From assembly GCA_963997925.1 (NCBI GenBank), contig CAXEOX010000005.1:1-56012 (forward strand): a DNA stretch of 56,012 nt. The letters are read 5' to 3'. The position numbers and the translations under genes were made by a program. This document shows positions 5,408-42,546 of this stretch, piece after piece. A model generated the notes under the pieces. It was not told the origin of the DNA, did not search any database, and was given only the letters and a program-made list of their open reading frames with translations. Position 1 is the stretch's first letter. The number at the start of each line of letters is the position of its first letter. Source of the stretch: an uncultured bacterium. Lineage in GTDB: Bacteria; Chloroflexota; Dehalococcoidia; Lucifugimonadales; UBA3495.

Positions 5408-5830
5408 CTAGCCGGGGGTGTGACGGGATTGATTTATTCGTTTTGTTGCCGCCGATTTGAATCCCGCGATCAATGAGCCGAGGGATCTAGGCGGACGTTG
5501 GAAGATTGAGTTTCCACAGGGTAGGGGCCCACGGCCGTGCGCCCCTACCAAACCCTCGGGTTCACGTATCGTAATTATTCCGTGGATATGATTGGGCATG
5601 ATCACGAATTCATCTACTTGCACCTCAGGGCGGATGATTTCTGTATACGACCATTCCTCCTGAACTACCCTGCCCGCGAAATTCAACGCTACTTCTTCAT
5701 CAATCACGTTGCCAAATAAACATTCTCGACCTTTGGTACAGACCGTGACAAAGTAGGACCCAGGTTGGGAATAGTCATATCCTCGCAAGCGTATGGACCG
5801 GCGTTGATTAACTTCGGGATTGTGATTCAT
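5408..5830 (-). CDS. REP-associated tyrosine transposase (RAYT, IS200/Y1-like), truncated by an in-frame TAG
   Basis: RLRGYDYSQPGSYFVTVCT...VIMPNHIHGIITI (HUH). The frame continues after TAG 5408-5410 as PIWQRNYYEHIIRRETDINRIRQYIHDNPAKW... to TAG 5264-5266. Confidence 0.85.
   Translation of the reverse strand: MNHNPEVNQRRSIRLRGYDYSQPGSYFVTVCTKGRECLFGNVIDEEVALNFAGRVVQEEWSYTEIIRPEVQVDEFVIMPNHIHGIITIREPEGLVGAHGRGPLPCGNSIFQRPPRSLGSLIAGFKSAATKRINQSRHTPG
5521..5548. repeat. REP-A2 palindrome inside the RAYT coding sequence
   Basis: GTAGGGGCCCACGGCCGTGCGCCCCTAC (one mismatch). Encodes VGAHGRGPL of the RAYT on the minus strand. Confidence 0.8.
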
Positions 5831-5973
5831 ATTCGCTGATGCATCCGTTGGTCTGCTGGCCGATTTTTATGTAGATGGGTGTCTAGTAGAGTAGCCCCAA
5901 CCCGCTGGGCCTAATATAATATCAACGAACCTAGCCTCACGGAATAAAGCTTTGACAGTCGAAAGAGGATCAG

Positions 5974-6627
5974 ATGGATAGTTTTAGCGAACAGTTAAGG
6001 GCTGAAGCGGAGCCCATGTGGAAACAGATATTCGCCCAGCCTTTCTTACGAGAGATTAAAGACGGTACGCTGCCGTTGGAGAAGTTTCAGTATTACTTGG
6101 GACAGGACTATCTGTACCTGGAAGGGTTCGCCCGGACGGTGTGCATGGCCCTGGCCAAGGCCCCGGATTCACAGACATTGGAGGAGTTGGCCCACCGGGT
6201 AATGACCCCGGTGGAGCGCCCGTTGCATCACAAGTTGGTGGCCGAGGCCGGGCTGACCATGGAAGATGTTAAGAAGGTGAAGCGGTCGCCCACCAACACC
6301 GGTTATGTCAACCACATGATTACGACCGCGTCTCTTTACGGACTGGGACCGACGGCGGCGGCGCTGCTGCCTTGTCCCTGGTCTTATCATGAACTGAAGG
6401 ACGCTTTGGGCCAGTCGGAGCATCCCCTATACGGCCAGTGGACTCACTTCTACGTGGCGGGATTGCTACAGAACAGTGTGGATGCCTGGCGGGGGTTCGT
6501 GGACCAAGCGGCTCGAGAGGCAAGTTCACAGGAATTGGACGCGATGCGGGACGCCTTTATGATTAGCAGCCGCTACGAGTACATGTTCTGGGACATGGCC
6601 TATAACATGGAAGAGTGGCCTGTATAG
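5974..6627 (+). CDS. tenA: thiaminase II / aminopyrimidine aminohydrolase (TenA_C type)
   Basis: FLREIKDGTLPLEKFQYYLGQDYLYL, LLPCPWSY (catalytic Cys context) and YEYMFWDMAY. Confidence 0.85.
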   Translation: MDSFSEQLRAEAEPMWKQIFAQPFLREIKDGTLPLEKFQYYLGQDYLYLEGFARTVCMALAKAPDSQTLEELAHRVMTPVERPLHHKLVAEAGLTMEDVKKVKRSPTNTGYVNHMITTASLYGLGPTAAALLPCPWSYHELKDALGQSEHPLYGQWTHFYVAGLLQNSVDAWRGFVDQAAREASSQELDAMRDAFMISSRYEYMFWDMAYNMEEWPV

Positions 6628-6661
6628 GGCCACTCTAAGGTCTAATTGATGTTTTAGGGAT

Positions 6662-6689
6662 AAGCCGGCCTAGAAGCCTAGACCGGCTT
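6662..6689. terminator. hairpin between convergent tenA and a small ORF
   Basis: AAGCCGGCCTAG-AAGC-CTAGACCGGCTT, a 12-bp stem with one mismatch. No clean U-tract. Confidence 0.35.
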
Positions 6690-6697
6690 GCGTCGTC

Positions 6698-6916
6698 TTA
6701 AGTCTGGATGGGTGACGGCCTTTCCCGGTAAGTGTAGTACCGCACTCCGGCGCAGGGGACGAAGTAGAACCAGGGCGCTATTTCATTCTCGGTCAATTTT
6801 GCAGCGCTTTCCGCCTCCTTCACTATATCGGCCAGTTCGTCGATCAAGGATGGATCCAGTCCGGCCTCTGTGACTTCCACTTCATCTAGACGTTCCGTAA
6901 CTAACATCGGCCCCAT
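6698..6916 (-). CDS. small acidic hypothetical protein (72 aa)
   Basis: ATG at 6916 is preceded by AGGAGG (8-nt spacer). The longer 142-aa version of the ORF has an Arg/Ser/Cys-rich, non-protein-like N-terminus. No family recognised. Confidence 0.35.
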   Translation of the reverse strand: MGPMLVTERLDEVEVTEAGLDPSLIDELADIVKEAESAAKLTENEIAPWFYFVPCAGVRYYTYRERPSPIQT

Positions 6917-7267
6917 TGCAACACCTCCTGACGTACTCGAGTCAACGCCCATCACCACTGCTTGCCTTCTAGGGTCATTTTCGCCTGGGACAGACTTGTC
7001 AGTAAGGGCCGAAAGGCACGTTGTACACATCCATCCGGCCCTGAGCCTGATGATATCGGAATTCGACCTGAGTATTCGACCTCGTCTAGCGTAACCCGCC
7101 ATAGGGCATGACCAACTTGGCATCAACGGGCCGCTTTAAGGGTTCGGTCCGGGATATTTTGATATCTTTTTTCCCGGATCAGATGTGTCAGAATGCGTCC
7201 ATGCCACGTCCCCAGAGGTGCTGCTAGACGATATCAATGCAATCTGATCGGATATTCCCCAGTTAGA

Positions 7268-7618
7268 ATGTCTGACCTGATGCATGAATTGATTGGTACT
7301 ACCAAGATGCTTTCCATCTTGCCAGCGGTGGGGTTTACCGATGTCGCTCGTTGGATATGGTACGGGATCTCTGGATTGATTGTTGCGGGGATTGTCCTGC
7401 ATCTGTTGTTCACCCTGGTGAACGCAGCGTATAAAGATAGAAAACACAGCACCATGCTTATCGTCCATTTAGTCGTAGGGTCATCTAATCGGCGGCTTTA
7501 CTGTAGCGATCCTTCCTATACCAATAACCGGTCTGTGGGCTTTGTTTGCTTGTGGGGGTGGGATTGTCGGGATGATGATTGGGGAACTTCGCTGGGTTGC
7601 CCCAGAAGACGCCATTGA
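7268..7618 (+). CDS. hypothetical membrane protein fragment (possibly the 5' part of a frameshifted gene)
   Basis: One clear TM helix (WIWYGISGLIVAGIVLHLLFTLV), no SD, AT-rich. The sequence loses protein-like character after about 7480. Confidence 0.2.
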   Translation: MSDLMHELIGTTKMLSILPAVGFTDVARWIWYGISGLIVAGIVLHLLFTLVNAAYKDRKHSTMLIVHLVVGSSNRRLYCSDPSYTNNRSVGFVCLWGWDCRDDDWGTSLGCPRRRH

Positions 7619-8093
7619 AGACGAAGGTCTGAGCATGGATCAGGCCAGCACCCAGCAAACCCCATCGTCCCAACGTGAATGGGATAACCGTAGGGAAAAT
7701 GACTGTGACCTTGCAATTTCCCTATTAGGTCAAGGGGAATGCTGCGATGGTTGCCACCGGGAGTGGATGAAGGAACATTATGCCATGGTATTAGAGGGTG
7801 AAAAGTTGCTTGTCTGCCATATCCTGTCTGACTTAATCAAAGCTGATGGGGGAGCCTCGGATGACGACACTGCTCGGAGGCGTGCCAGGATAAGGGCCGG
7901 TGAGGGTGTTCGCCGAACACAAGCAGAATCTTATAGACGATTGAGCCACCCACCACACTGCTTCGAGCACCCGAATCTCTCACCTGAGGTAGACATGCAA
8001 CTGCATCGCGAGCTATTTGAGCTTGGTCCGCTGGAAGGTAAGGATCAGAATAAGCGGCGAAAAATAGAAGAGAAATACATCTCCGGGCGCTAG
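7542..8093 (+). CDS. hypothetical Cys/His-rich protein
   Basis: The frame is open from 7479 and begins with TM-like FTVAILPIPITGLWALFACGGGIVGMMIG, followed by a CCDGCHREW...VCH region. No family recognised. Confidence 0.3.
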   Translation: MFACGGGIVGMMIGELRWVAPEDAIEDEGLSMDQASTQQTPSSQREWDNRRENDCDLAISLLGQGECCDGCHREWMKEHYAMVLEGEKLLVCHILSDLIKADGGASDDDTARRRARIRAGEGVRRTQAESYRRLSHPPHCFEHPNLSPEVDMQLHRELFELGPLEGKDQNKRRKIEEKYISGR

Positions 8094-8233
8094 AAAACTC
8101 GTCACCTATTGTCTGTCACGTTGTGCCTAGCCATAAGGCCCTGAGCGGGACGACCTGAACCTTGGCCTGCGGGTCTGGACCTCGATGCAAGCGGTGGCCG
8201 TCGGATGGGGCGTACCCTATGCGAGGAGCAACT

Positions 8234-8644
8234 GTGCACCGGAGGCCCGTGTTACCGATGAATCATAAAACCAACGAAATGCTCCGAGCGTTCGCAGCAG
8301 AGGTGACTTCGACGCTGCTAGATGGCAATCGCCATCAGACTCCCGGACTAGGCACTTTTTCAACGTGTATTCGAAAAGCAAGCGCAAAGAGAGCTGCTTG
8401 CAAAATGGTTATGTTTCGGGCGAGCGCGGAGCTTAGAGCGTATGCCACTGGTGGATCGCTACCACTCGTGTCCGGACCACATGCCGAAGTCGTGAGCTTT
8501 ATCGTCGAGGCCATGCAAATGGAACAGGGTGTCGACGTGCCGCTTCTTGGCCGCATGGCAGTGGTGCCTGTAGTAGGAAAGAAACCGAAGCTAATTTTCC
8601 ACGGTGCCCAAGAGCTCAATGACGTCTTAGCCGGCTCATGTTGA
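8234..8644 (+). CDS. hypothetical, weak resemblance to tandem HU/IHF-like DNA-binding half-domains
   Basis: GTG at 8234 with GAGGAG SD. GLGTFSTCIRK...MVMFRASAELR and VDVPLLGRMAVVP...LIFHGAQELNDVL resemble HU beta-arm flanks. Pattern recognition only. Confidence 0.3.
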   Translation: MHRRPVLPMNHKTNEMLRAFAAEVTSTLLDGNRHQTPGLGTFSTCIRKASAKRAACKMVMFRASAELRAYATGGSLPLVSGPHAEVVSFIVEAMQMEQGVDVPLLGRMAVVPVVGKKPKLIFHGAQELNDVLAGSC

Positions 8645-34803: not shown

Positions 34804-35907
34804 TTATGCTGCCCCCACCAGTTCGGTTAGGGCCGCTACCACGGCGTCGGTTTCGTGGGGGAATCCGACGCTGGATCTGATGTAGTCCTTGAGCACGGGG
34901 GTGTTGAAGTAGCGCAGGAATATCCCACGGCTGCACAGGCCCTCGAAGATGCGTTCTCCCTGTCCTTCGGGGAGGCTGAACAGGATGAAATTGGCTTGAG
35001 AAGGCCAGGCTTTGATGCCGGGAATCTTCTGCAGCAGTCCCATCATCCGTTCCCGCTCGGCCACGATGGACTTTACCCGTTCCAGCAGAACCGTCGTGTC
35101 TTCCAATGAAGCGGTCAAGGCGACCTCGGCGGCGGTGTTCACGTTGTAAGGCGGCTTCATGCTAATCATGGTCTGGGCCAGTTCTTCTTGCATCACACCC
35201 AGGCCGATGCGCAGACCGGCTAGTCCGGCCCACTTGCTGAAGGTACGCAGTATCACTAAGTTGGGATATTCCTCCATCAAGGGCATGACCGACTCGCCGC
35301 AGAACTCGTAGTAGGTCTCGTCTACGACTATCAAACGTCCCGTTTCCAGCAAGGCCCTGATCTGGCTTTCGGTGGCGATATTGCCGCTGGGGTTGTTGGG
35401 CGAAGCGAGGAAGACGGCTTTGGTCTTGGGCGTCATCGCCGTTACCATCGCTTCTACGTCAATCTCGAAGTTCTCGTCACTGGGTATGGACAGGGCTTCA
35501 CCGCCGCAGATGTCAGCGGTGAAGGAGTACATGCCGAAGGTGGGCGACGGGATGATGATGTTCTCGCCCGGCCCCAGAAACATGCGCAACAGCAGGTCGA
35601 TCAACTCGTCGCTGCCGTTGCCCGCGACGATTCGCTCCGCAGGCGCACCCAGATACTTGGAAAGGACGCTCCTTAGCTTGCGCTGCTCCGGGTCGGTGTA
35701 GTGATTGTAGAACTGGAAATTGCCCAGCGCCTCGTTCACTACAGGCGAAGGGCCGAAGGGATTCTCGTTGCCGTTGAGGCGAATCACTTGGTCCGCCGGG
35801 ATACCGGCCCGTTCCGCGATGACCTCCATGGGGTCAACCCCGTGGTAGGGCTTCAAGCGGCGGATGTGGGGCAACATCATTTCTTGGAGGTTTTCAATGT
35901 TGTTCAT
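34804..35907 (-). CDS. hisC: histidinol-phosphate aminotransferase
   Basis: LNGNENPFGPSP, SPNNPSGN and RTFSKWAGLAGLRIG (PLP Lys). ATGA overlap with hisD. Confidence 0.9.
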   Translation of the reverse strand: MNNIENLQEMMLPHIRRLKPYHGVDPMEVIAERAGIPADQVIRLNGNENPFGPSPVVNEALGNFQFYNHYTDPEQRKLRSVLSKYLGAPAERIVAGNGSDELIDLLLRMFLGPGENIIIPSPTFGMYSFTADICGGEALSIPSDENFEIDVEAMVTAMTPKTKAVFLASPNNPSGNIATESQIRALLETGRLIVVDETYYEFCGESVMPLMEEYPNLVILRTFSKWAGLAGLRIGLGVMQEELAQTMISMKPPYNVNTAAEVALTASLEDTTVLLERVKSIVAERERMMGLLQKIPGIKAWPSQANFILFSLPEGQGERIFEGLCSRGIFLRYFNTPVLKDYIRSSVGFPHETDAVVAALTELVGAA

Positions 35908-37253
35908 TTTGCAGCGGCCCCGCTTTCAATGTAGTCAAGCCTTACTTGGATGGCGCTGGCGTGTCCCGCTAAGCCCTCGGCATTGGCGATCTGTACCGCT
36001 GACGGCCCCAAACGCTGGAAGTCCGAGGGGCTAAGCCCGACCACCGGCATGCGGCGCAGAAACTGGTGCACGCTGAGGGCCGAGCTGTATCGGGCGGTGC
36101 CCCCGGTGGGCATCACGTGACTGGGACCGGCGATGTAGTCGCCCATCACTTCGGGAGAAAATTCGCCGAGGAACAGGCCGCCGGCGTGCCTAATCTTGTC
36201 CGTCCAGGTCCAAGGGTCGGAGACCATCAGGCAAAGATGCTCGGGGGCGATGTTGTTGACTAGGTCGGCGGCTTGGTCCAGGGAATCAACCAGGACGATT
36301 CTGCCCCGACGCTCCAATGCGCTGCGGGCCAGTTCCCCCCTGGGTGTAGCGGCCAACATGGTATCCAACTCCGATTGCACCTGATCTATCAGCGACTGGG
36401 AGTCGGTCACCAGGATGGCAGTGGCCATAGGGTCGTGTTCGGCTTGGCCAATCATGTCGGCGGCGCAGAATATGGGGCTGGCCGATCCGTCGGCGACGAC
36501 GATGGTCTCGGTGGGACCAAACACGCCGTCGATGCCCACTTGGCCTTGCACCAAGCTCTTGGCCAACCCAACGAACAGGTTGCCGGGTCCGCATATTTTG
36601 TCTACTTTGGCGATGGAATCGGTCCCGTAGGCCATGGCTCCGATGGCCGGAACGCCGCCTACCTGGTAGATGGCGTCCACCCCGGCAATCTCCGCCGCAA
36701 CCAGTACTGCCGGGTTCAAGGGTTCGTTCCCCCGGCGTGGTGTGGCAAGGATAATCTCTTTGACTCCGGCGACCCGGGCGGGGACCGCTGTCATCAGGAC
36801 AGTGGATGGATAGGCGGCGGTGCCGCCGGGGGCGTAAAGGCCAACCCGGTCTAAGGGACGCACAAGTTCGCCCAAGCCTTTGTTTTCATCCAGCCAATCC
36901 GAGGGCATGACGGCTTCATGAAACTCTCTCACCCGTTGAGCGGCCAACTCCAAGGACTTGCGAAGGTCATCGGAGACAGCGGCCCGCGCCTCGTCCATCT
37001 GGGCGGGACTGACCAGCATGTCCTGTAGGTCGATGTTGTCCAGCATCTTGGCGTAATGGCGCACCGCTGTGTCTCCGGTGGCGCGGACATCGCGCAGGAT
37101 GCGGATGACCGACTCCTCCGGCGAAACACCCTCGCCAAAGATACGGCGGGTCTGGGCCGAGACGGATTCGGGCAGGCCGCTAAAGTCGAGGGGGTCTAAA
37201 CGGGTAAGAACTGCCTCCGCGCCTTCAACCCCTTTAATCAGCTTAAGTTCCAC
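35904..37253 (-). CDS. hisD: histidinol dehydrogenase
   Basis: GTG start. YAPGGTAAYPSTVLM...GPGNLFV...QAEHD...APEHL motifs. Confidence 0.95.
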   Translation of the reverse strand: MELKLIKGVEGAEAVLTRLDPLDFSGLPESVSAQTRRIFGEGVSPEESVIRILRDVRATGDTAVRHYAKMLDNIDLQDMLVSPAQMDEARAAVSDDLRKSLELAAQRVREFHEAVMPSDWLDENKGLGELVRPLDRVGLYAPGGTAAYPSTVLMTAVPARVAGVKEIILATPRRGNEPLNPAVLVAAEIAGVDAIYQVGGVPAIGAMAYGTDSIAKVDKICGPGNLFVGLAKSLVQGQVGIDGVFGPTETIVVADGSASPIFCAADMIGQAEHDPMATAILVTDSQSLIDQVQSELDTMLAATPRGELARSALERRGRIVLVDSLDQAADLVNNIAPEHLCLMVSDPWTWTDKIRHAGGLFLGEFSPEVMGDYIAGPSHVMPTGGTARYSSALSVHQFLRRMPVVGLSPSDFQRLGPSAVQIANAEGLAGHASAIQVRLDYIESGAAAK

Positions 37254-37306
37254 GTTATCTTGTCCTTCTTGCTAACCGTGTTATAGACGAATTATAGGGA
37301 TTGCTA

Positions 37307-38308
37307 CTATGCCGACACCGCGTCTGAATCTATTACGTGGCTCCGATATTGTCGATATCGGTCGGCCATCGTGAGTGCTTCCTGTCCTCTCGCACTCAGA
37401 AATTCTTCGTTAGCAATGCTGGGCGCCACACGAACAACACCGACATCGGCATATTGCGGGCCTGGCCTAGGCGGATTTTCAGCTTCGTAGATGATGAACG
37501 CCTCTTTCGAGCGGTCAAGATCCGAATCTAGCCGTGAAATCGTTTGATAACCAGACGCCACTAGTTCCTCGACAAGATCTGAAATTCCGACTGAACTAGT
37601 ACTATCTCGCGTCGGATACTTTTTCTTCAGGTAAGCCGTAAGTGTATCGAGGTTTATTTCTTCGGTTCCTAGTGTATTGGCAATTTGTGCTTTTTGCTCG
37701 GCCTGTAGTCTGGCCTGTTGGCTGGAGCTAAAAAACAACTCGAAATGAGAGTCGGCAACATAGAACATTGCGCTCAAAGCATTAAAGTCCCGACGCAGAT
37801 TTGATGGTATCGCATTCGGTGACTTATAATCCAAATAGTGCGAAATTGTCGCCCAGGCGTGCATTGCGATAGTTCTAACCTGCACCTCGAATCGCAATCC
37901 CTTGATTCCGTCGTAGCGAGGGCCACTGAAACTATCAGGCAGCCTTGCTACATAGTGCACTGATAGGTAGCCGAATTCTTCGTGGGGCTTTGCGGTTATC
38001 TTGTCATCAGTACTTTCTAGGTCGAATGTTTCCTCGAGAAGCTTTCCAATCTCCTGGATATCGGACAGAAAAAGGCCAATAATCCTAATCCCGCAGATAT
38101 CTACTATTTCTTCAAATGGCGGCTCAGTTTCTTGCCGCTCCATTTTAGCAATTAGCGAGTCGACCGGTTTGATGCGTCCTTCCAGCATGTGAATGGCGAT
38201 ACCCCGTTGCGCTAACGCGCTTTCGAGAATGTAGATTATTTCGCCTTTCAGTTGCTCGTATTTTGGCCGTGCCGATTCATAGCCAGCCTGGACTTCATCT
38301 ATTTCCAT
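37307..38308 (-). CDS. RelA/SpoT-domain small alarmone synthetase with an unassigned ~130-aa C-terminal domain
   Basis: GRIKPVDSLIAKMERQ, DICGIRIIG, GYLSVHYVARL and FEVQVRTIAMHAWATISHYLDYK. No HD/TGS/ACT domains. Visibly AT-rich relative to its flanks. Confidence 0.85.
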   Translation of the reverse strand: MEIDEVQAGYESARPKYEQLKGEIIYILESALAQRGIAIHMLEGRIKPVDSLIAKMERQETEPPFEEIVDICGIRIIGLFLSDIQEIGKLLEETFDLESTDDKITAKPHEEFGYLSVHYVARLPDSFSGPRYDGIKGLRFEVQVRTIAMHAWATISHYLDYKSPNAIPSNLRRDFNALSAMFYVADSHFELFFSSSQQARLQAEQKAQIANTLGTEEINLDTLTAYLKKKYPTRDSTSSVGISDLVEELVASGYQTISRLDSDLDRSKEAFIIYEAENPPRPGPQYADVGVVRVAPSIANEEFLSARGQEALTMADRYRQYRSHVIDSDAVSA

Positions 38309-38326
38309 ATCGAAACCTTAGAACCC

Positions 38327-39085
38327 CTATACTCCACTCATATACTCGCGAGCATGGGAAACCGTTTGCGCCAAGACCTGTGCCTGGTAGGCGTCCAACC
38401 GCTCTTCGGGAATCTTCTCATATATGCGTTCTAAACTGTAGGGCATCCCCTGCAGGAACTTGTCCACGGTTTGCTGAACGTCGTCGTTGTCGCGGTACAT
38501 GCGGTTCATGGCCCGTTTCAATCTGTCCCAGCTGAAATCCCGAGTCATGAACCGGCCGACCCACTCCCTCCATTCTTGGAGAAGGTCGACTTCTAGGAAC
38601 CCAACATCCACGCTTTGATCGCCGCAGATTATGTCCTCAGCGGCTTGGTGTAAGCCGTCCATGGCGGCAAAGGTTTTGCGGTCCATCTCCAGTTGGAGCG
38701 TCCGGTCCCACATGTTGGCCTCGACGTCGTCGCAGGCAACATTGTTCTCGCCGTCGAAGTAGGTTCGGTACATGGTGGTGATCCAAACTTCGTCGGCCAC
38801 CAAGTGGCTGATGTATCCCAAGATAAAGGCCCGGGTAGCCGGCGTCTGGTTGCCGGGGTCGGCCAGGTTCGGGTAGCTTTCCAGCATGGTGCGGACCCCG
38901 GTGCCGACTGACTCCAGCGACAGAGTGGCAAAATGGGTCCGTTCTCTGGGCCAGCCGGTCATCGCCCGGATGTCCGGAGTTGTGGACCCCAGGAAGAAGC
39001 TTCCGACGTGGTCCTGGATGCTTCCCCAGTCCAGTTGCTCGGCGGCCTGGTTGGCCAGATATATGTGCATCGGCAGATTGGGCAT
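38327..39085 (-). CDS. zinc-dependent phospholipase C-fold family protein
   Basis: Start moved to ATG 39085 (4 nt after the hisG stop). MHIYLANQAAEQL...FFLGSTTPDI...GYISHLVADEVW are His/Asp metal-site contexts of the Zn_dep_PLPC family. Confidence 0.65.
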   Translation of the reverse strand: MPNLPMHIYLANQAAEQLDWGSIQDHVGSFFLGSTTPDIRAMTGWPRERTHFATLSLESVGTGVRTMLESYPNLADPGNQTPATRAFILGYISHLVADEVWITTMYRTYFDGENNVACDDVEANMWDRTLQLEMDRKTFAAMDGLHQAAEDIICGDQSVDVGFLEVDLLQEWREWVGRFMTRDFSWDRLKRAMNRMYRDNDDVQQTVDKFLQGMPYSLERIYEKIPEERLDAYQAQVLAQTVSHAREYMSGV

Positions 39086-39089
39086 GCCG

Positions 39090-40106
39090 TTAAGACTCTC
39101 CGTTCTCGAACAGTTGGTGGTACGCCGAAGAGAAGCCATCGAACAGGTAGGTTATTTGGGATGCGGCTATGTCTACCGCGCCGCAACTCCGCAGGTGGTC
39201 CACCGCTTCCAGAAGCTGGCCCTTCTTGATGAGCAAGCTAACGCTATACCAGTCCTCTTCCTCAATGTTGTAGACCCTGGCGATGGTGGGTCCTCGAAGT
39301 CCCGCAAGATCCGGCCGGGCCAGAACGGTGCCGCTGACTTCCTGAGCGGAGGCGCTTTGAACGTTGGCGGTGATGCGGTAGAAAGGCTCGGCTCGGAGAT
39401 GGGCTTCCATGACGTCCATTATCGAGCGGGCCAGTTTCAGACATTTCTTGGATTCTTTGAGCAGGTTGATGTTTCCGATCAAGCAGGCCTGGGAAACCAA
39501 TATCGTGCCCTCTTCCAGGGTTTTGAGTTGGTTCTCCCGCATGGTCGTGCCGGTGGCAGTGATGTCGGCGATCAGGTCGGCGTACCCGGCGGCGGGGGCA
39601 GCTTCCAGGGTGCCGCTTACCGGAACCAGAGTGAAGTGGTTGATTCCCCGGTCAAACAGGTAGTGGCGCAACAACCGAGCGTACTTGGTGGCGATGCGGA
39701 GTTGTTTACCCTGCTGACGAAACTCCAATGCCAGGTCTGCTAGGTCGGAAACCGATGTCACATCAAGCCATGAGTTTGGCACGGCGAGAACGAAGTCGGC
39801 TTGTCCATAGCGCAGATCGTCTATCAGAGTAGCCACGGTGTGATCGTCGTGACGGTATTCCAGCAACCGGTCCAAACCGGTAACGCCCAACTCGGCGCTG
39901 CCCTCCTCGACCTTTTCGGTGATGTCGGCGGTTCTTTGGAACAGCACCTCAACGCCGGAAATGGCGGGGATAGTGCCGGTATAGCGTCGACTGTTGGGAC
40001 GCAGAACCGACAGACCACAGGCGCTGAAAAAATTCAGAGTGGATTCATGCAGGGCGCCGTCGCTGGGCAGGACCAGTCGCAAAGCCGTTTCTTCCTTCAA
40101 TGACAT
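39090..40106 (-). CDS. hisG: ATP phosphoribosyltransferase, long form with C-terminal HisG_C regulatory domain
   Basis: LRLVLPSDGAL...GVTGLD...DITATGTTMRENQL, plus C-terminal ...GPTIARVYN...WYSVSLLIKKGQLLEAVDHLRSCGAVDI. Confidence 0.9.
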   Translation of the reverse strand: MSLKEETALRLVLPSDGALHESTLNFFSACGLSVLRPNSRRYTGTIPAISGVEVLFQRTADITEKVEEGSAELGVTGLDRLLEYRHDDHTVATLIDDLRYGQADFVLAVPNSWLDVTSVSDLADLALEFRQQGKQLRIATKYARLLRHYLFDRGINHFTLVPVSGTLEAAPAAGYADLIADITATGTTMRENQLKTLEEGTILVSQACLIGNINLLKESKKCLKLARSIMDVMEAHLRAEPFYRITANVQSASAQEVSGTVLARPDLAGLRGPTIARVYNIEEEDWYSVSLLIKKGQLLEAVDHLRSCGAVDIAASQITYLFDGFSSAYHQLFENGES

Positions 40107-40109
40107 GGG

Positions 40110-41549
40110 TTACCGCCGGTCCGGCTCGGCTGAGTGGGCCGTTCGCTGGCCGTCTACGCTGACTACGACAACCTGAGCCATACCCGACTTGCGAGCGTAG
40201 ACGAGGCCTTCACCCAGATCCCGTCCACGGACGTCTAATTCAGTTTGGATGCCCTGTTGCCTCAGGTCCGAAGCGGCTCGTAACGCTGCCCGGTAGCTTT
40301 TCGGGCTATCCGCTATGACCAGCGCGCCGGACGCTTCAGAAGCTCCATCATCCGCAGCGCCGGAGTGTTCGACGGCTTCAAGAAGGGCTTCCAGGGTGTA
40401 AGCGAAACCCAAAGCAGGCAGAGGTTCCGGGCTACCCAGGGCTTGGGCCAAGTCGTCGTAACGACCGCCCCCGGCCAATGGTGTTTCGCAACTGGGGTGG
40501 GTAACTTCAAATACAAGCCCGTTGTAATAAGCCAGGCCGCGAACCAACCCCAAGTCCACTACCAGATTTTCAGCGACTCCGGGCTCCGATTGAACGAGAT
40601 TCAGAAACTCCTCAAATCTCTCAACCGCAGCCATGTCAGCTCCGGCTTCGGTCACAACGTTGCGCAGGGCCGTCACCGATGCGGCGGGTTCTCCGCTGAT
40701 GCCTGCCAGGTCGCTGATAAGATTCAACGCTCGTTCCAAAACTGCTACGTCGTCGCCGCCTCTTAGCTTGCGCAATAAGCGGTCAACTACGTCATCGGGG
40801 TCCCGTTGTCCGAATTGGTCCGCCGCCGTCCAGTCAAGCAAACCATGCAGAACCTTGCGAGACTGGGCGTCGTCCAAACCGTCGATCGCTTGGCCCAGAG
40901 CATCGTCAGGAGTATCTTGAATCGCCAGATGTAGTTGCCGGGCCTGTTCAAGCACGTCCGGAACAGCCTGCCGTCCTTCCTTTAATCGGGGCACGCTGCT
41001 CATGATGAAAGTGCGGGCTCGATCGGAAACGCCCACTGCGTCCAAAACGCTGTGCACCACGTCCAGGTTGGCGACGCGTATCTGATAGCCTGTCAGGCCC
41101 AGTTGAGACGGGCCGTGGGCCGCCAGTCCTAGAAGCTCGACGTCGGCCATCACGCTGGATGAGCCTAGAAGCTCGGCGCCGACTTGGGTGAACTGACCCC
41201 TGCCTTGGCCGTCCTTGTCATAGCGAAACACCGGACCGGCGTATTGCCAGCGGGCCGGCAGGGCGACGTCTGGGGCTTGTTCCAAATAATGGCGGACTAT
41301 GGGTGAGGTGAATTCAGGGCGGAGGCTGACGTGGTTGCTACCGGCGTCGGTGAAGCTGTACATCCGGGAGGCCAGTTCTCCGCCGGCTTTGCGAAGAAAC
41401 AGTTCGGTGGATTCTAGGATGGGCGTCTCTAAATAACGGTAGCCGTAGCTACCAATCAACTCCACCAGCCGGTCCTGGAGGTTTCGTTTCCGTAACCAAA
41501 AATCCTGGGGAGTGTCGTACATTCCCAGGAGGCGCGTGACCGATTTCAT
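40110..41549 (-). CDS. hisZ: HisRS-like protein, probable HisZ (regulatory subunit), retaining an anticodon-binding-like C-terminal domain
   Basis: LRPEFTSPIVR, FRYDKDGQGRGQFTQVG (degenerate motif 2), LVRGLAYY and GGGRYDDL. The C-terminal region resembles the HisRS anticodon domain. Sits directly upstream of hisG. Confidence 0.55.
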   Translation of the reverse strand: MKSVTRLLGMYDTPQDFWLRKRNLQDRLVELIGSYGYRYLETPILESTELFLRKAGGELASRMYSFTDAGSNHVSLRPEFTSPIVRHYLEQAPDVALPARWQYAGPVFRYDKDGQGRGQFTQVGAELLGSSSVMADVELLGLAAHGPSQLGLTGYQIRVANLDVVHSVLDAVGVSDRARTFIMSSVPRLKEGRQAVPDVLEQARQLHLAIQDTPDDALGQAIDGLDDAQSRKVLHGLLDWTAADQFGQRDPDDVVDRLLRKLRGGDDVAVLERALNLISDLAGISGEPAASVTALRNVVTEAGADMAAVERFEEFLNLVQSEPGVAENLVVDLGLVRGLAYYNGLVFEVTHPSCETPLAGGGRYDDLAQALGSPEPLPALGFAYTLEALLEAVEHSGAADDGASEASGALVIADSPKSYRAALRAASDLRQQGIQTELDVRGRDLGEGLVYARKSGMAQVVVVSVDGQRTAHSAEPDRR

Positions 41550-41659
41550 CAGAAGAAAGACTCATCATTTCATCATGTTGAGGACTGGAGCCTATTGTAC
41601 AGCAGCCCCTGTGGTGGTTCAACTTGAACGAGGGCCGTGAATCGGTAGGAATTGGGGGG

Positions 41660-41720
41660 CCCTCACCCCCCGGCCCCTCTCCCGCGGGTAGAGGGGTGCC
41701 GACGATAAAATCGGGTGCGG
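41660..41720 (-). repeat. nested GC-rich hairpin element (REP-B3), inverted relative to B1/B2
   Basis: CCCTCACCCCCCGG-CCCCTCTCCC-GCGG-GTAGAGGGG-TGCCGACGATAAAATC-GGGTGCGG. The spacer resembles the reverse complement of the B1 spacer. Confidence 0.65.
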
Positions 41721-41781
41721 ACTCCTAGCGTATCTTCAGCGAAATGACACGGGACTATCTAGAAGTTGCCGGGTATCTGAG

Positions 41782-42546
41782 TTAAGGATGGGCGTTCAGT
41801 CCGCCGTCTACGTATACTGCTTGGCCGGTGGTGTAGTCGCAGGATTCGGAGCAGAGGTAGACCAGGAGGGGGGCGATGTCTCGGGGATGGCCTTTGCGGT
41901 GTAATGGGGTGTAACGCACCAGCAATTCTTCTTGCTGGACTTCCAGCGGTATATCTTCAGCGGTAGTCCAGCCCGTGCCCAAGGCGTTGACCCTGATGTT
42001 GTGGCGGCCCCACTCGACGGCCAATGAACGAGTTAATGATAATAGGCCCGCTTGGCTGGCGGAGAACGCCGAGGTGTTAATCATGCCCCGCTCCGCAAGT
42101 CCGGAGACCAGATTGACGATTCTGCCATATTGCTTGTCTACCATACGGCGGCCCACTGCTTGGGTGAGCAAGAATGTACTTTTCAGGTTTCGGGATTGGA
42201 CCTCGTCCCATTCTTCCAGCGTTATTTCATCGAAGGGTTTGGCGAACATGCTCTGGACATCGTTCACCAGGATGTCCACTGGACTGTCATGGTGGTCGAA
42301 GGCTTCCATCGCCAGAGAGGTTCCCTGTGTGGTGGCCAAATCAGCCACTACGCCACCGCGGTTGGCAAAGGAGCTTCCTTCCAAGGCTTGCAAGACAGCA
42401 GTTAAATGGGATTGGCGTCGTGCGATGGTGAACACCAACGCACCGGCTTCCGACAGAGCCAGAGCCAGATGGGGAGCTTGGTCACCACCTGTGGTCGCCA
42501 GAATGGCTACCTTGCCGGACAGGTCGTATTCGGGGAGAAGAGGCAT
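41782..42546 (-). CDS. SDR-fold protein with degenerate catalytic and cofactor motifs (pseudo-SDR)
   Basis: Has AFSASQAG where YxxxK is expected, ATTGGDQAP instead of TGxxxGxG, and NDVQ instead of NNAG. Confidence 0.8.
   Translation of the reverse strand: MPLLPEYDLSGKVAILATTGGDQAPHLALALSEAGALVFTIARRQSHLTAVLQALEGSSFANRGGVVADLATTQGTSLAMEAFDHHDSPVDILVNDVQSMFAKPFDEITLEEWDEVQSRNLKSTFLLTQAVGRRMVDKQYGRIVNLVSGLAERGMINTSAFSASQAGLLSLTRSLAVEWGRHNIRVNALGTGWTTAEDIPLEVQQEELLVRYTPLHRKGHPRDIAPLLVYLCSESCDYTTGQAVYVDGGLNAHP

Follow-up and report, generated by a model that had tools for sequence, protein, structure and literature searches.

An AT-rich small alarmone synthetase gene with a helical C-terminal module inserted in the histidine operon of a Dehalococcoidia bacterium

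Small alarmone synthetases (SAS) of the RelQ/RelP type, described from Firmicutes as SAS1/YjbM and SAS2/YwaC, are non-toxic housekeeping enzymes encoded by conserved chromosomal genes. Toxic SAS (toxSAS) are found in the bicistronic toxin-antitoxin (TA) modules FaRel, FaRel2, PhRel, and PhRel2 (PMC7229694), and in CapRel(SJ46), a fused toxSAS toxin-antitoxin antiphage protein whose C-terminal pseudo-zinc-finger domain (pseudo-ZFD) is a beta-sheet domain (PMC9712102). Here we describe a 333-residue SAS open reading frame (ORF) located within the histidine biosynthetic (his) operon of an uncultured marine Chloroflexota bacterium (Dehalococcoidia; Lucifugimonadales; UBA3495). The window, meaning the whole stretch of DNA that was analyzed, comprises 56,012 nucleotides (contig CAXEOX010000005.1 of assembly GCA_963997925.1, positions 1 to 56,012). 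A literature search gave no precedent for an SAS embedded in a his operon. The gene is foreign to the operon and, judged from its intact active-site residues, encodes a catalytically competent pyrophosphokinase. We give about an even chance to the reading that it is a fused effector-sensor switch for growth arrest or defence, analogous but not homologous to CapRel, which is transcribed with the his operon.

The only Pfam family in the ORF is RelA_SpoT (PF04607; residues 44-164, E=1.6e-23, 83.5 bits against a gathering cut-off of 27 bits). The four synthetase motifs quoted in a first-pass annotation of this DNA were all found in the translation. The same annotation had reported that HD, TGS, and ACT domains are lacking, and none was detected in the Pfam search; the AlphaFold model (mean predicted local distance difference test score, pLDDT, 89.4) consists of SYNTH and a helical C-terminal domain only. 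The protein is divided as follows:

37307..38308, minus strand: SAS ORF, 333 aa, the inserted gene (Pfam RelA_SpoT, third-position GC content, AlphaFold model)
37685..38308, minus strand: SYNTH domain, residues 1-208, with an N-terminal helix, the SYNTH core and a long helix (169-208); RelQ/RelP-like fold
37397..37660, minus strand: core of the C-terminal module, residues 217-304, EEINLDTL...LVEEL...YE..PP...DVGVVR

Residues 1-208 align to RelQ/RelP with Foldseek TM scores of 0.75-0.80 over ~200 residues, including the long C-terminal helix of the SYNTH fold, at a sequence identity of 26-29%. Profile searches against the Protein Data Bank (PDB) matched RelQ/RelP (YjbM/YwaC) at E~1e-26, as compared with E=1.8e-5 for CapRel (7ZTB), where only the SYNTH core was matched. 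Eight residues that are invariant in the family (R45, K47, K55, D70, the G-loop tyrosine Y114, E141, Q143, and R145) are present here. RelQ/RelP have identical residues for ATP binding, Mg and the G-loop, and the chemistry, a transfer of pyrophosphate from ATP to a purine nucleotide, is likely to be shared as well; the G-loop tyrosine also occurs in CapRel. The SYNTH domain is acidic (isoelectric point 4.9-6.0), a weak hint that argues against a tRNA substrate and is a further difference from CapRel. The protein differs from RelQ/RelP in its extra ~125-aa helical C-terminal domain, and scores 88 bits with the NCBIfam YjbM equivalog model (NF053588), well below the cut-off of 320. A whole-chain superposition on CapRel 7ZTB gave a root-mean-square deviation (rmsd) of 12-20 A, CapRel being aligned through the core only. 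The SYNTH region also matches the RelA/SpoT-like PADLOC entry PDC-S33, a computational candidate, with 8e-17, although the match is partial and covers profile positions 67-237 only (171/349). PMC7229694, in which 30 SAS subfamilies are described, does not include this family in its validated set.

The ~130 C-terminal residues, left unassigned in the first-pass annotation, proved to be a real domain that is conserved across the family. When modelled alone, the domain is predicted to form a compact all-helical bundle (pLDDT 90.8, predicted TM score 0.83). No Pfam or PHROG family was found for it, and the fold search against the PDB gave no significant match (best E 0.72), CapRel not being among the matches. 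Sequence variability across the family is higher in this domain than in the SYNTH core (entropy of 2.24 vs 1.43 bits). The earlier description of the protein as CapRel-like thus holds for its layout, in that a single polypeptide joins an N-terminal SYNTH effector to a more variable C-terminal part, but only by analogy: the SYNTH domain is nearer RelQ/RelP (~1e-26 vs ~2e-5), and since the C-terminal domain is helical while the CapRel pseudo-ZFD is a beta-sheet domain, homology of the two C-terminal parts is not supported. Homology to any other structure in the PDB was likewise rejected on the result of the fold search.

A profile of the C-terminal domain was searched against 1.84 billion representative proteins and recovered 566 proteins, for which architectures were determined from the best 150. 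Among these best 150, 85 were SAS fusions and ~60 were short proteins, perhaps standalone and perhaps fragments, while two (P0414 and P0361) carried the module behind TIR domains of the CAP12/Pycsar type and also matched PDC-S35, a TIR-type computational candidate in PADLOC. In addition, P0289 contains two tandem copies of the module followed by TPR repeats, and P0269 is an SAS with two copies. The segment common to the SAS and TIR proteins corresponds to residues 217-304 and is 40-43% identical. The C-terminal module is thus a new domain, modular and specific to the family, and seems to be swappable between effectors. A 486-aa protein, P0319, was also observed in which the module is present and no N-terminal domain could be recognized.

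The gene stands out from its surroundings in composition. Its GC content is 0.481 (0.445-0.50 in 200-nt windows inside the gene), whereas the flanking genes are at about 0.57-0.62. The contrast lies mainly at third codon positions, where the GC content (GC3) is 0.48 as compared with 0.63-0.78 in the other genes of the operon, and this is the lowest value among the 50 ORFs of the window (mean 0.676, standard deviation 0.071; about 2.8 standard deviations below the mean). The compositional step previously noticed at the ORF borders was recovered to within roughly 100-200 nt. The surrounding operon, whose gene order and coordinates in the first-pass annotation agree with the ORF list, is organized as follows:

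41549-40110, minus strand: hisZ-like gene, Pfam-confirmed
40106-39090, minus strand: hisG, Pfam-confirmed
38327..39085, minus strand: gene of the zinc-dependent phospholipase C (Zn-PLC) fold (Zn_dep_PLPC, PF00882, 1.1e-09), GC3 0.76; native and outside the insert
38322..38337, minus strand: left copy of the sequence at the 5' end of hisD, now diverged, GTGGAG-TATAGGGGTT, kept at the PLC 3' end
38309..38326, minus strand: left insert border, a spacer of 18 nt from the PLC stop to the SAS start that contains a Shine-Dalgarno-like AAGG
37254..37306, minus strand: right insert border, a spacer of 53 nt from the SAS stop to the GTG start of hisD that contains the hisD ribosome-binding site GAAGGA
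37227..37253, minus strand: functional hisD start region (nt 1-27, GTGGAACTTAAGCTGATTAAAGGGGTT), right copy of the duplicated junction sequence
37253-35904, minus strand: hisD, followed by hisC and then hisB; Pfam-confirmed

The PLC start at 39085 is correct and an alternative start at 39139 is wrong, because the homologs are 252 aa long.

The nearest relatives having long contigs (L086, L087-89, and L090/91, with PLC proteins 76%, 75%, and 64% identical to that of the window) have the operon hisZ-hisG-PLC-hisD-...-hisC-hisB without the SAS gene. In these empty sites PLC and hisD overlap by 11 nt or directly abut, so that hisD starts inside the PLC gene or directly after it, and the overlap is present as a single sequence copy, (G/A)TGGAGCTTAA. 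The window has the two copies listed above, and in L172, another genome with the SAS gene, ATGGAGCTTAAGCT is retained at the same left junction. A host tree constructed from six operon proteins, (L003,(L090,(window,(L086,L087)))), places empty sites closer to the window than the SAS-bearing L003. On the basis of the empty sites in closer relatives and the diverged hisD copy at the PLC 3' end, we conclude that ~1.07 kb (37254-38326) was inserted exactly in a formerly overlapping, translationally coupled PLC/hisD junction and that the overlap sequence was duplicated. The earlier suggestion of a foreign insertion of ~1 kb is thereby borne out. The insert leaves both flanking reading frames intact and brings a new ribosome-binding site for hisD. 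Regarding transposon-type ends, only chance-level repeats of 10-13 nt were found, and no integrase or IS is located near the insert; a 10-nt inverted repeat at the insert borders (TATAGGGGTT / AATCCCTATA, 37293-37302 / 38322-38331) is likewise at chance level for an AT-rich stretch. Among 9 sampled contigs of the window's own population none had an empty site.

The gaps on both sides of the SAS gene are tight, no terminator-like site was found between SAS and hisD, and no Rfam element (T-box, attenuator or antitoxin RNA) was matched within 35800-42000 at E<=1. Co-transcription of SAS with the his operon is therefore likely. A weak promoter-like match, TCGACA-17-TAGATT, is present before hisD, within the 3' end of SAS (37327-37355 on the minus strand); a match of this quality is expected by chance in AT-rich DNA. 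Single-gene inserts seem to be tolerated in the his operon of this Dehalococcoidia clade. In L086 (8227-9045, plus strand) a lone gene for a Uma2-family, putatively restriction-endonuclease-like protein (PF05685, E=4.7e-15) is located between hisD and hisC with a host-like GC3 of 0.70, and a gene for a PemK-type toxin lies upstream of the his-operon neighbourhood of the same genome.

Homologs of the SAS protein are ~325-340 aa long and conserved along the whole length, including the C-terminal region. With one genome per species (185,579 species), we found ~43 full-length members in more than 10 phyla including archaea, the hosts being Clostridia, Bacilli, Chloroflexota, Planctomycetota, Verrucomicrobiota, Acidobacteriota, Actinomycetota, Proteobacteria, Methanotrichaceae, and Bathyarchaeota. 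In nearly all GC-rich hosts the AT content of the gene is markedly above that of the adjoining DNA (e.g., 0.43 vs 0.66 and 0.40 vs 0.68), and members that are AT-poorer than their host are rare. Relatives with the C-terminal domain were found as solitary accessory genes in prophages of M. abscessus, in a filamentous Vibrio phage (inovirus), and on B. mycoides megaplasmids, where they adjoin genes for DUF4435, DUF3800, KAP-NTPase, and recombinase proteins. The member in Vibrio phage 10N.261.45.F7_PE002A (8.1 kb, filamentous, Tubulavirales; L175, 6571-7581) is full-length (336 aa, 30% identical) and forms the terminal cargo of the phage, adjoining a transcription regulator. The SAS protein matches the phage family phrog_9640 (5.5e-41). 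No recurrent neighbour was found among ~40 full-length loci. The most recurrent domain among the 148 neighbours of loci outside his operons was Phage_integrase (5), and L173, the nearest sister of the window SAS outside his operons, adjoins an integrase fragment; DRT reverse transcriptase, TIR effector, MADS component, and restriction-type genes occur sporadically nearby. The SAS family is thus a rare, patchy, cross-phylum, AT-rich family of single accessory genes, whose carriers include prophages, a filamentous phage, and megaplasmids. Mobility and the extra C-terminal domain had been part of the original proposal and are upheld; like CapRel, the family occurs on prophages and mobile DNA, and it is unlike RelQ/RelP in this respect.

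Five loci from Planctomycetota (L047, L048, L050, L052, and L054) encode short forms of 196-216 aa that end at residue ~195, where the C-terminal region would begin. Upstream of each is a conserved, overlapping or abutting gene of ~108 aa whose product is beta-rich and weakly GrlR-like (E=0.0027). This arrangement resembles the bicistronic toxSAS modules, and the two genes are a putative, undescribed toxSAS toxin-antitoxin pair, whereas the window gene and the full-length members are without a conserved adjacent partner. We also considered whether the ~108-aa partner is homologous to the C-terminal domain; this is not supported, the partner being beta-rich and the domain helical. A MazF-like pair lies downstream of the short form in L047, and an ImmA-like/DUF4411-like pair upstream of that in L048. 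In Clostridium aestuarii (L002, 6001-10564) a 140-aa HD_4 gene that resembles small alarmone hydrolases lies downstream of the family member, which could be a hydrolase-type antitoxin arrangement and is a further likeness to the bicistronic systems. Further on in L002, a second, divergent 334-aa RelA_SpoT gene and a gene for an NA37 nucleoid-associated protein are located on the other strand.

In five lineages among the >150 family loci the SAS gene is linked to the his operon, in every case at the same PLC/hisD junction:

Window population (L001, L092-95, and L180-182): SAS in the PLC/hisD junction
L172: SAS 66% identical to that of the window, PLC/hisD junction
L003/L012: SAS 51% identical, PLC/hisD junction
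L177: SAS 52% identical, PLC/hisD junction
L122: SAS 48% identical, PLC/hisD junction

No his genes were found near the other >150 loci. The gene is not a conserved member of the operon, being present in these five lineages and absent in L086, L087-89, and L090/91. In other his-linked lineages the SAS GC3 is 0.45, 0.51, and 0.56 against 0.71-0.88 in the flanks. In a neighbour-joining (NJ) tree of 171 SAS sequences with 200 bootstraps, the five lineages fall in three sub-clades. Support is strong for the grouping of the window with L172 (193/200); a second sub-clade holds both L177 and L122, while L003 is placed elsewhere. Sister sequences such as P0015, P0111, and L173 come from outside his operons; an earlier, sparser tree had joined the window and L003 at 60%. 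The union of the his-linked SASs was monophyletic in 0/200 bootstraps. A single ancient insertion with monophyletic his-linked SASs was therefore not recovered, a result that is not firm since the deep nodes are weak. Within sub-clades, host and SAS relatedness track each other (HisD is 76% and SAS 53% identical between L177 and L122), which shows that the gene has been retained vertically for long; between sub-clades, where those same nodes apply, the data are compatible with roughly three separate acquisitions at a single junction, or with one old acquisition followed by losses and outward transfer. In each of the five his-linked alleles the positions for ATP binding, Mg and the G-loop are unaltered, and all 31 family-invariant positions (31/31) are kept in the five lineages despite pairwise identities of 41-66%.

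Within the window population the SAS gene varies more than its neighbours. Nucleotide divergence is 0.3-2.4% in SAS and 0-1% in the flanks, nonsynonymous polymorphism (pN) is 0.0085 vs 0.0008-0.0028, and the ratio of nonsynonymous to synonymous polymorphism (pN/pS) is 0.48, compared with 0.12-0.39 for hisG, PLC, hisD, hisC, and hisB. In the strains L093 and L095 the flanking his genes are 99-100% identical. The common alleles of 329 aa, that of L093 included, have an in-frame 12-nt deletion affecting residues 197-201 in the linker helix, and L095 is frameshifted by a 1-nt deletion at codon 261, or possibly by an assembly error. Substitutions at conserved positions (D174N, A148P, and A151D) were observed in some alleles, but most alleles are intact, and 88 members fall in the 90% cluster.

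If the protein is a switch of the kind proposed above, one polypeptide would combine the effector (SYNTH) and the sensor (the C-terminal module). By analogy with CapRel, the variable module would hold the pyrophosphokinase domain inactive until a trigger, which might be a phage-derived or stress-derived ligand or protein, is sensed. SYNTH would then move pyrophosphate from ATP to a purine nucleotide, forming (p)ppGpp or (pp)pApp, with tRNA as a less likely acceptor, and the outcome would be growth arrest; the his operon would supply transcription. That the module is found on alternative toxic effectors, while a short-form effector needs a coupled partner, points to design features of TA or abortive-infection systems without proving them. 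Several observations weigh against the effector-sensor switch. Toxicity, autoinhibition, and trigger are assigned by analogy, and the non-toxic housekeeping enzymes RelQ/RelP resemble the SYNTH domain much more than any validated toxSAS does. The TIR fusions are rare (2/150), many family loci lie among plain housekeeping genes, and the IMG/VR viral contigs gave no relatives with the patterns used. Furthermore, the gene is fixed in 9/9 sampled contigs of the window population and, within sub-clades, has stayed at one his junction through deep divergence (the window and L172 SASs being 66% identical, and L177 and L122 as given above), a persistence that is unusual for a fast-turnover defence gene.

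The same persistence is what a domesticated, pathway-linked synthetase would show, a tentative explanation that we regard as a real but lesser possibility and that does not exclude the switch. Here, derepression of the his operon upon histidine limitation would raise SAS and thereby (p)ppGpp, which would act on HisG, on operon expression or on growth, with the module sensing a metabolite. ppGpp affects HisG and his expression in enteric bacteria. The occurrence of five lineages at exactly this junction, the fixation, the likely co-transcription across tight gaps without a terminator, the ORF and catalytic residues that are intact over deep divergence, and the RelQ/RelP-like acidic domain expected of a nucleotide-producing SAS all agree with such a role. 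Yet closer relatives have the same operon without an interruption from hisG to hisD, a state that the first-pass annotation had named as counting against this reading; his genes are absent from the vicinity of >150 other family loci, the his-linked SASs are not monophyletic in any bootstrap, GC3 is foreign in every lineage, and pN is raised, with some alleles altering invariant residues or carrying the frameshift; the link to histidine signalling put forward in the first-pass annotation stands to that extent only. The relaxed constraint, in particular the pN/pS of 0.48, the three substitutions, and the frameshifted L095, would fit a selfish passenger of no benefit to the host that is slowly decaying between coupled essential genes. 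In that case the gene would persist because the position guarantees expression and imprecise deletion would be lethal for histidine prototrophy, and both the insertion exactly in the gene overlap with its duplicated junction sequence and the different lone gene between hisD and hisC in L086 are in line with this. We consider it unlikely, as the retention of every invariant position in five lineages shows that purifying selection on function has persisted and as most alleles, among the 88 members of the 90% cluster, are intact. Two further explanations are highly improbable. A true CapRel or PhRel member, i.e., a tRNA 3'-CCA pyrophosphokinase with a pseudo-ZFD antitoxin/sensor and a phage-capsid trigger, would account for SAS and a C-terminal extension in one gene and for the weak similarity of the SYNTH core to 7ZTB, but it conflicts with the helical domain of no PDB fold, the poor superposition, the acidic SYNTH domain, and a SYNTH ~20 orders of magnitude nearer RelQ/RelP by E-value; the only mycobacteriophage matches are, moreover, two genes from M. 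abscessus prophages, neither of which has a partner in the same orientation. Just as improbable is a plain housekeeping RelQ/RelP orthologue located in the his operon by chance. RelQ/RelP provide the best sequence and fold matches, and by profile E-value the placement is RelQ/RelP-like; the equivalog score, the extra conserved domain, the foreign composition, the absence from sister lineages, and the patchy taxonomy do not agree with it.

The PLC-fold gene next to the insert had been considered a possible partner of SAS. It has hundreds of ~252-aa homologs in Chloroflexota/Dehalococcoidia and sits between hisG and hisD in L003, L086, L087, L090, and L177, with or without SAS, but is absent from all 150+ other SAS-family loci. 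Because of this distribution, and with its host-like GC3, the gene is a native member of the his operon and not an SAS partner, and the partner proposal was rejected. In Dehalococcoidia/Chloroflexota the gene is conserved in the his operon, where its end overlaps or abuts the start of hisD; the hisB of the window is monofunctional, encoding imidazoleglycerol-phosphate dehydratase (IGPD) only. Three families of histidinol-phosphate phosphatase have been described (HAD, PHP, and the IMPase-like HisN), of which HisN has been reported for the class Chloroflexia (PMC5516325). From its genomic context, the PLC-fold protein may be the histidinol-phosphate phosphatase of this clade.

Two other features of the window were noted. 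At 39090-41549 on the minus strand, a 479-aa HisZ-like protein (tRNA-synt_His, with no match to an anticodon-binding domain) is encoded alongside a long-form HisG with a HisG_C regulatory domain. HisZ usually goes with short-form HisG, and the combination with the long form is therefore unusual. A second patch of modestly low GC3 (0.51-0.57) is located at 5408-8644; it holds small ORFs of 140-183 aa, five in all and distributed over both strands, which gave no significant Pfam family and, in one case, a sub-threshold match to Bac_DNA_binding.

What appears new here is an effector of the SAS/toxSAS type with a predicted new sensor module in an unusual genomic niche. The uncharacterized SAS family carries a module that is unrelated to that of CapRel and common to TIR effectors, and is a candidate single-gene immune or stress switch. 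As a by-product, a conserved Zn-PLC-fold protein of the his operon was flagged, perhaps the unassigned histidinol-phosphate phosphatase of the clade. A more speculative and rather doubtful extension is that the PLC/hisD junction of Dehalococcoidia is a recurrent or long-kept docking site for a mobile alarmone-synthetase cassette, the expression of which is slaved to transcription controlled by histidine starvation. If so, the cassette would be a transferable "plug-in" that ties an amino-acid biosynthetic operon to nucleotide second-messenger control of growth, the helical module would be a new sensor domain swappable between SAS and TIR effectors, and the foreign codon composition would be kept by selection, e.g., by throttling the translation of a toxic enzyme. 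A lone accessory gene in the coupled junction of an essential operon, fixed in an abundant mesopelagic Chloroflexota population, present in several lineages and still compositionally foreign, bears on the persistence of selfish or defence genes away from defence islands, and raises the question whether a cell can gain alarmone signalling horizontally and wire it to a specific pathway.

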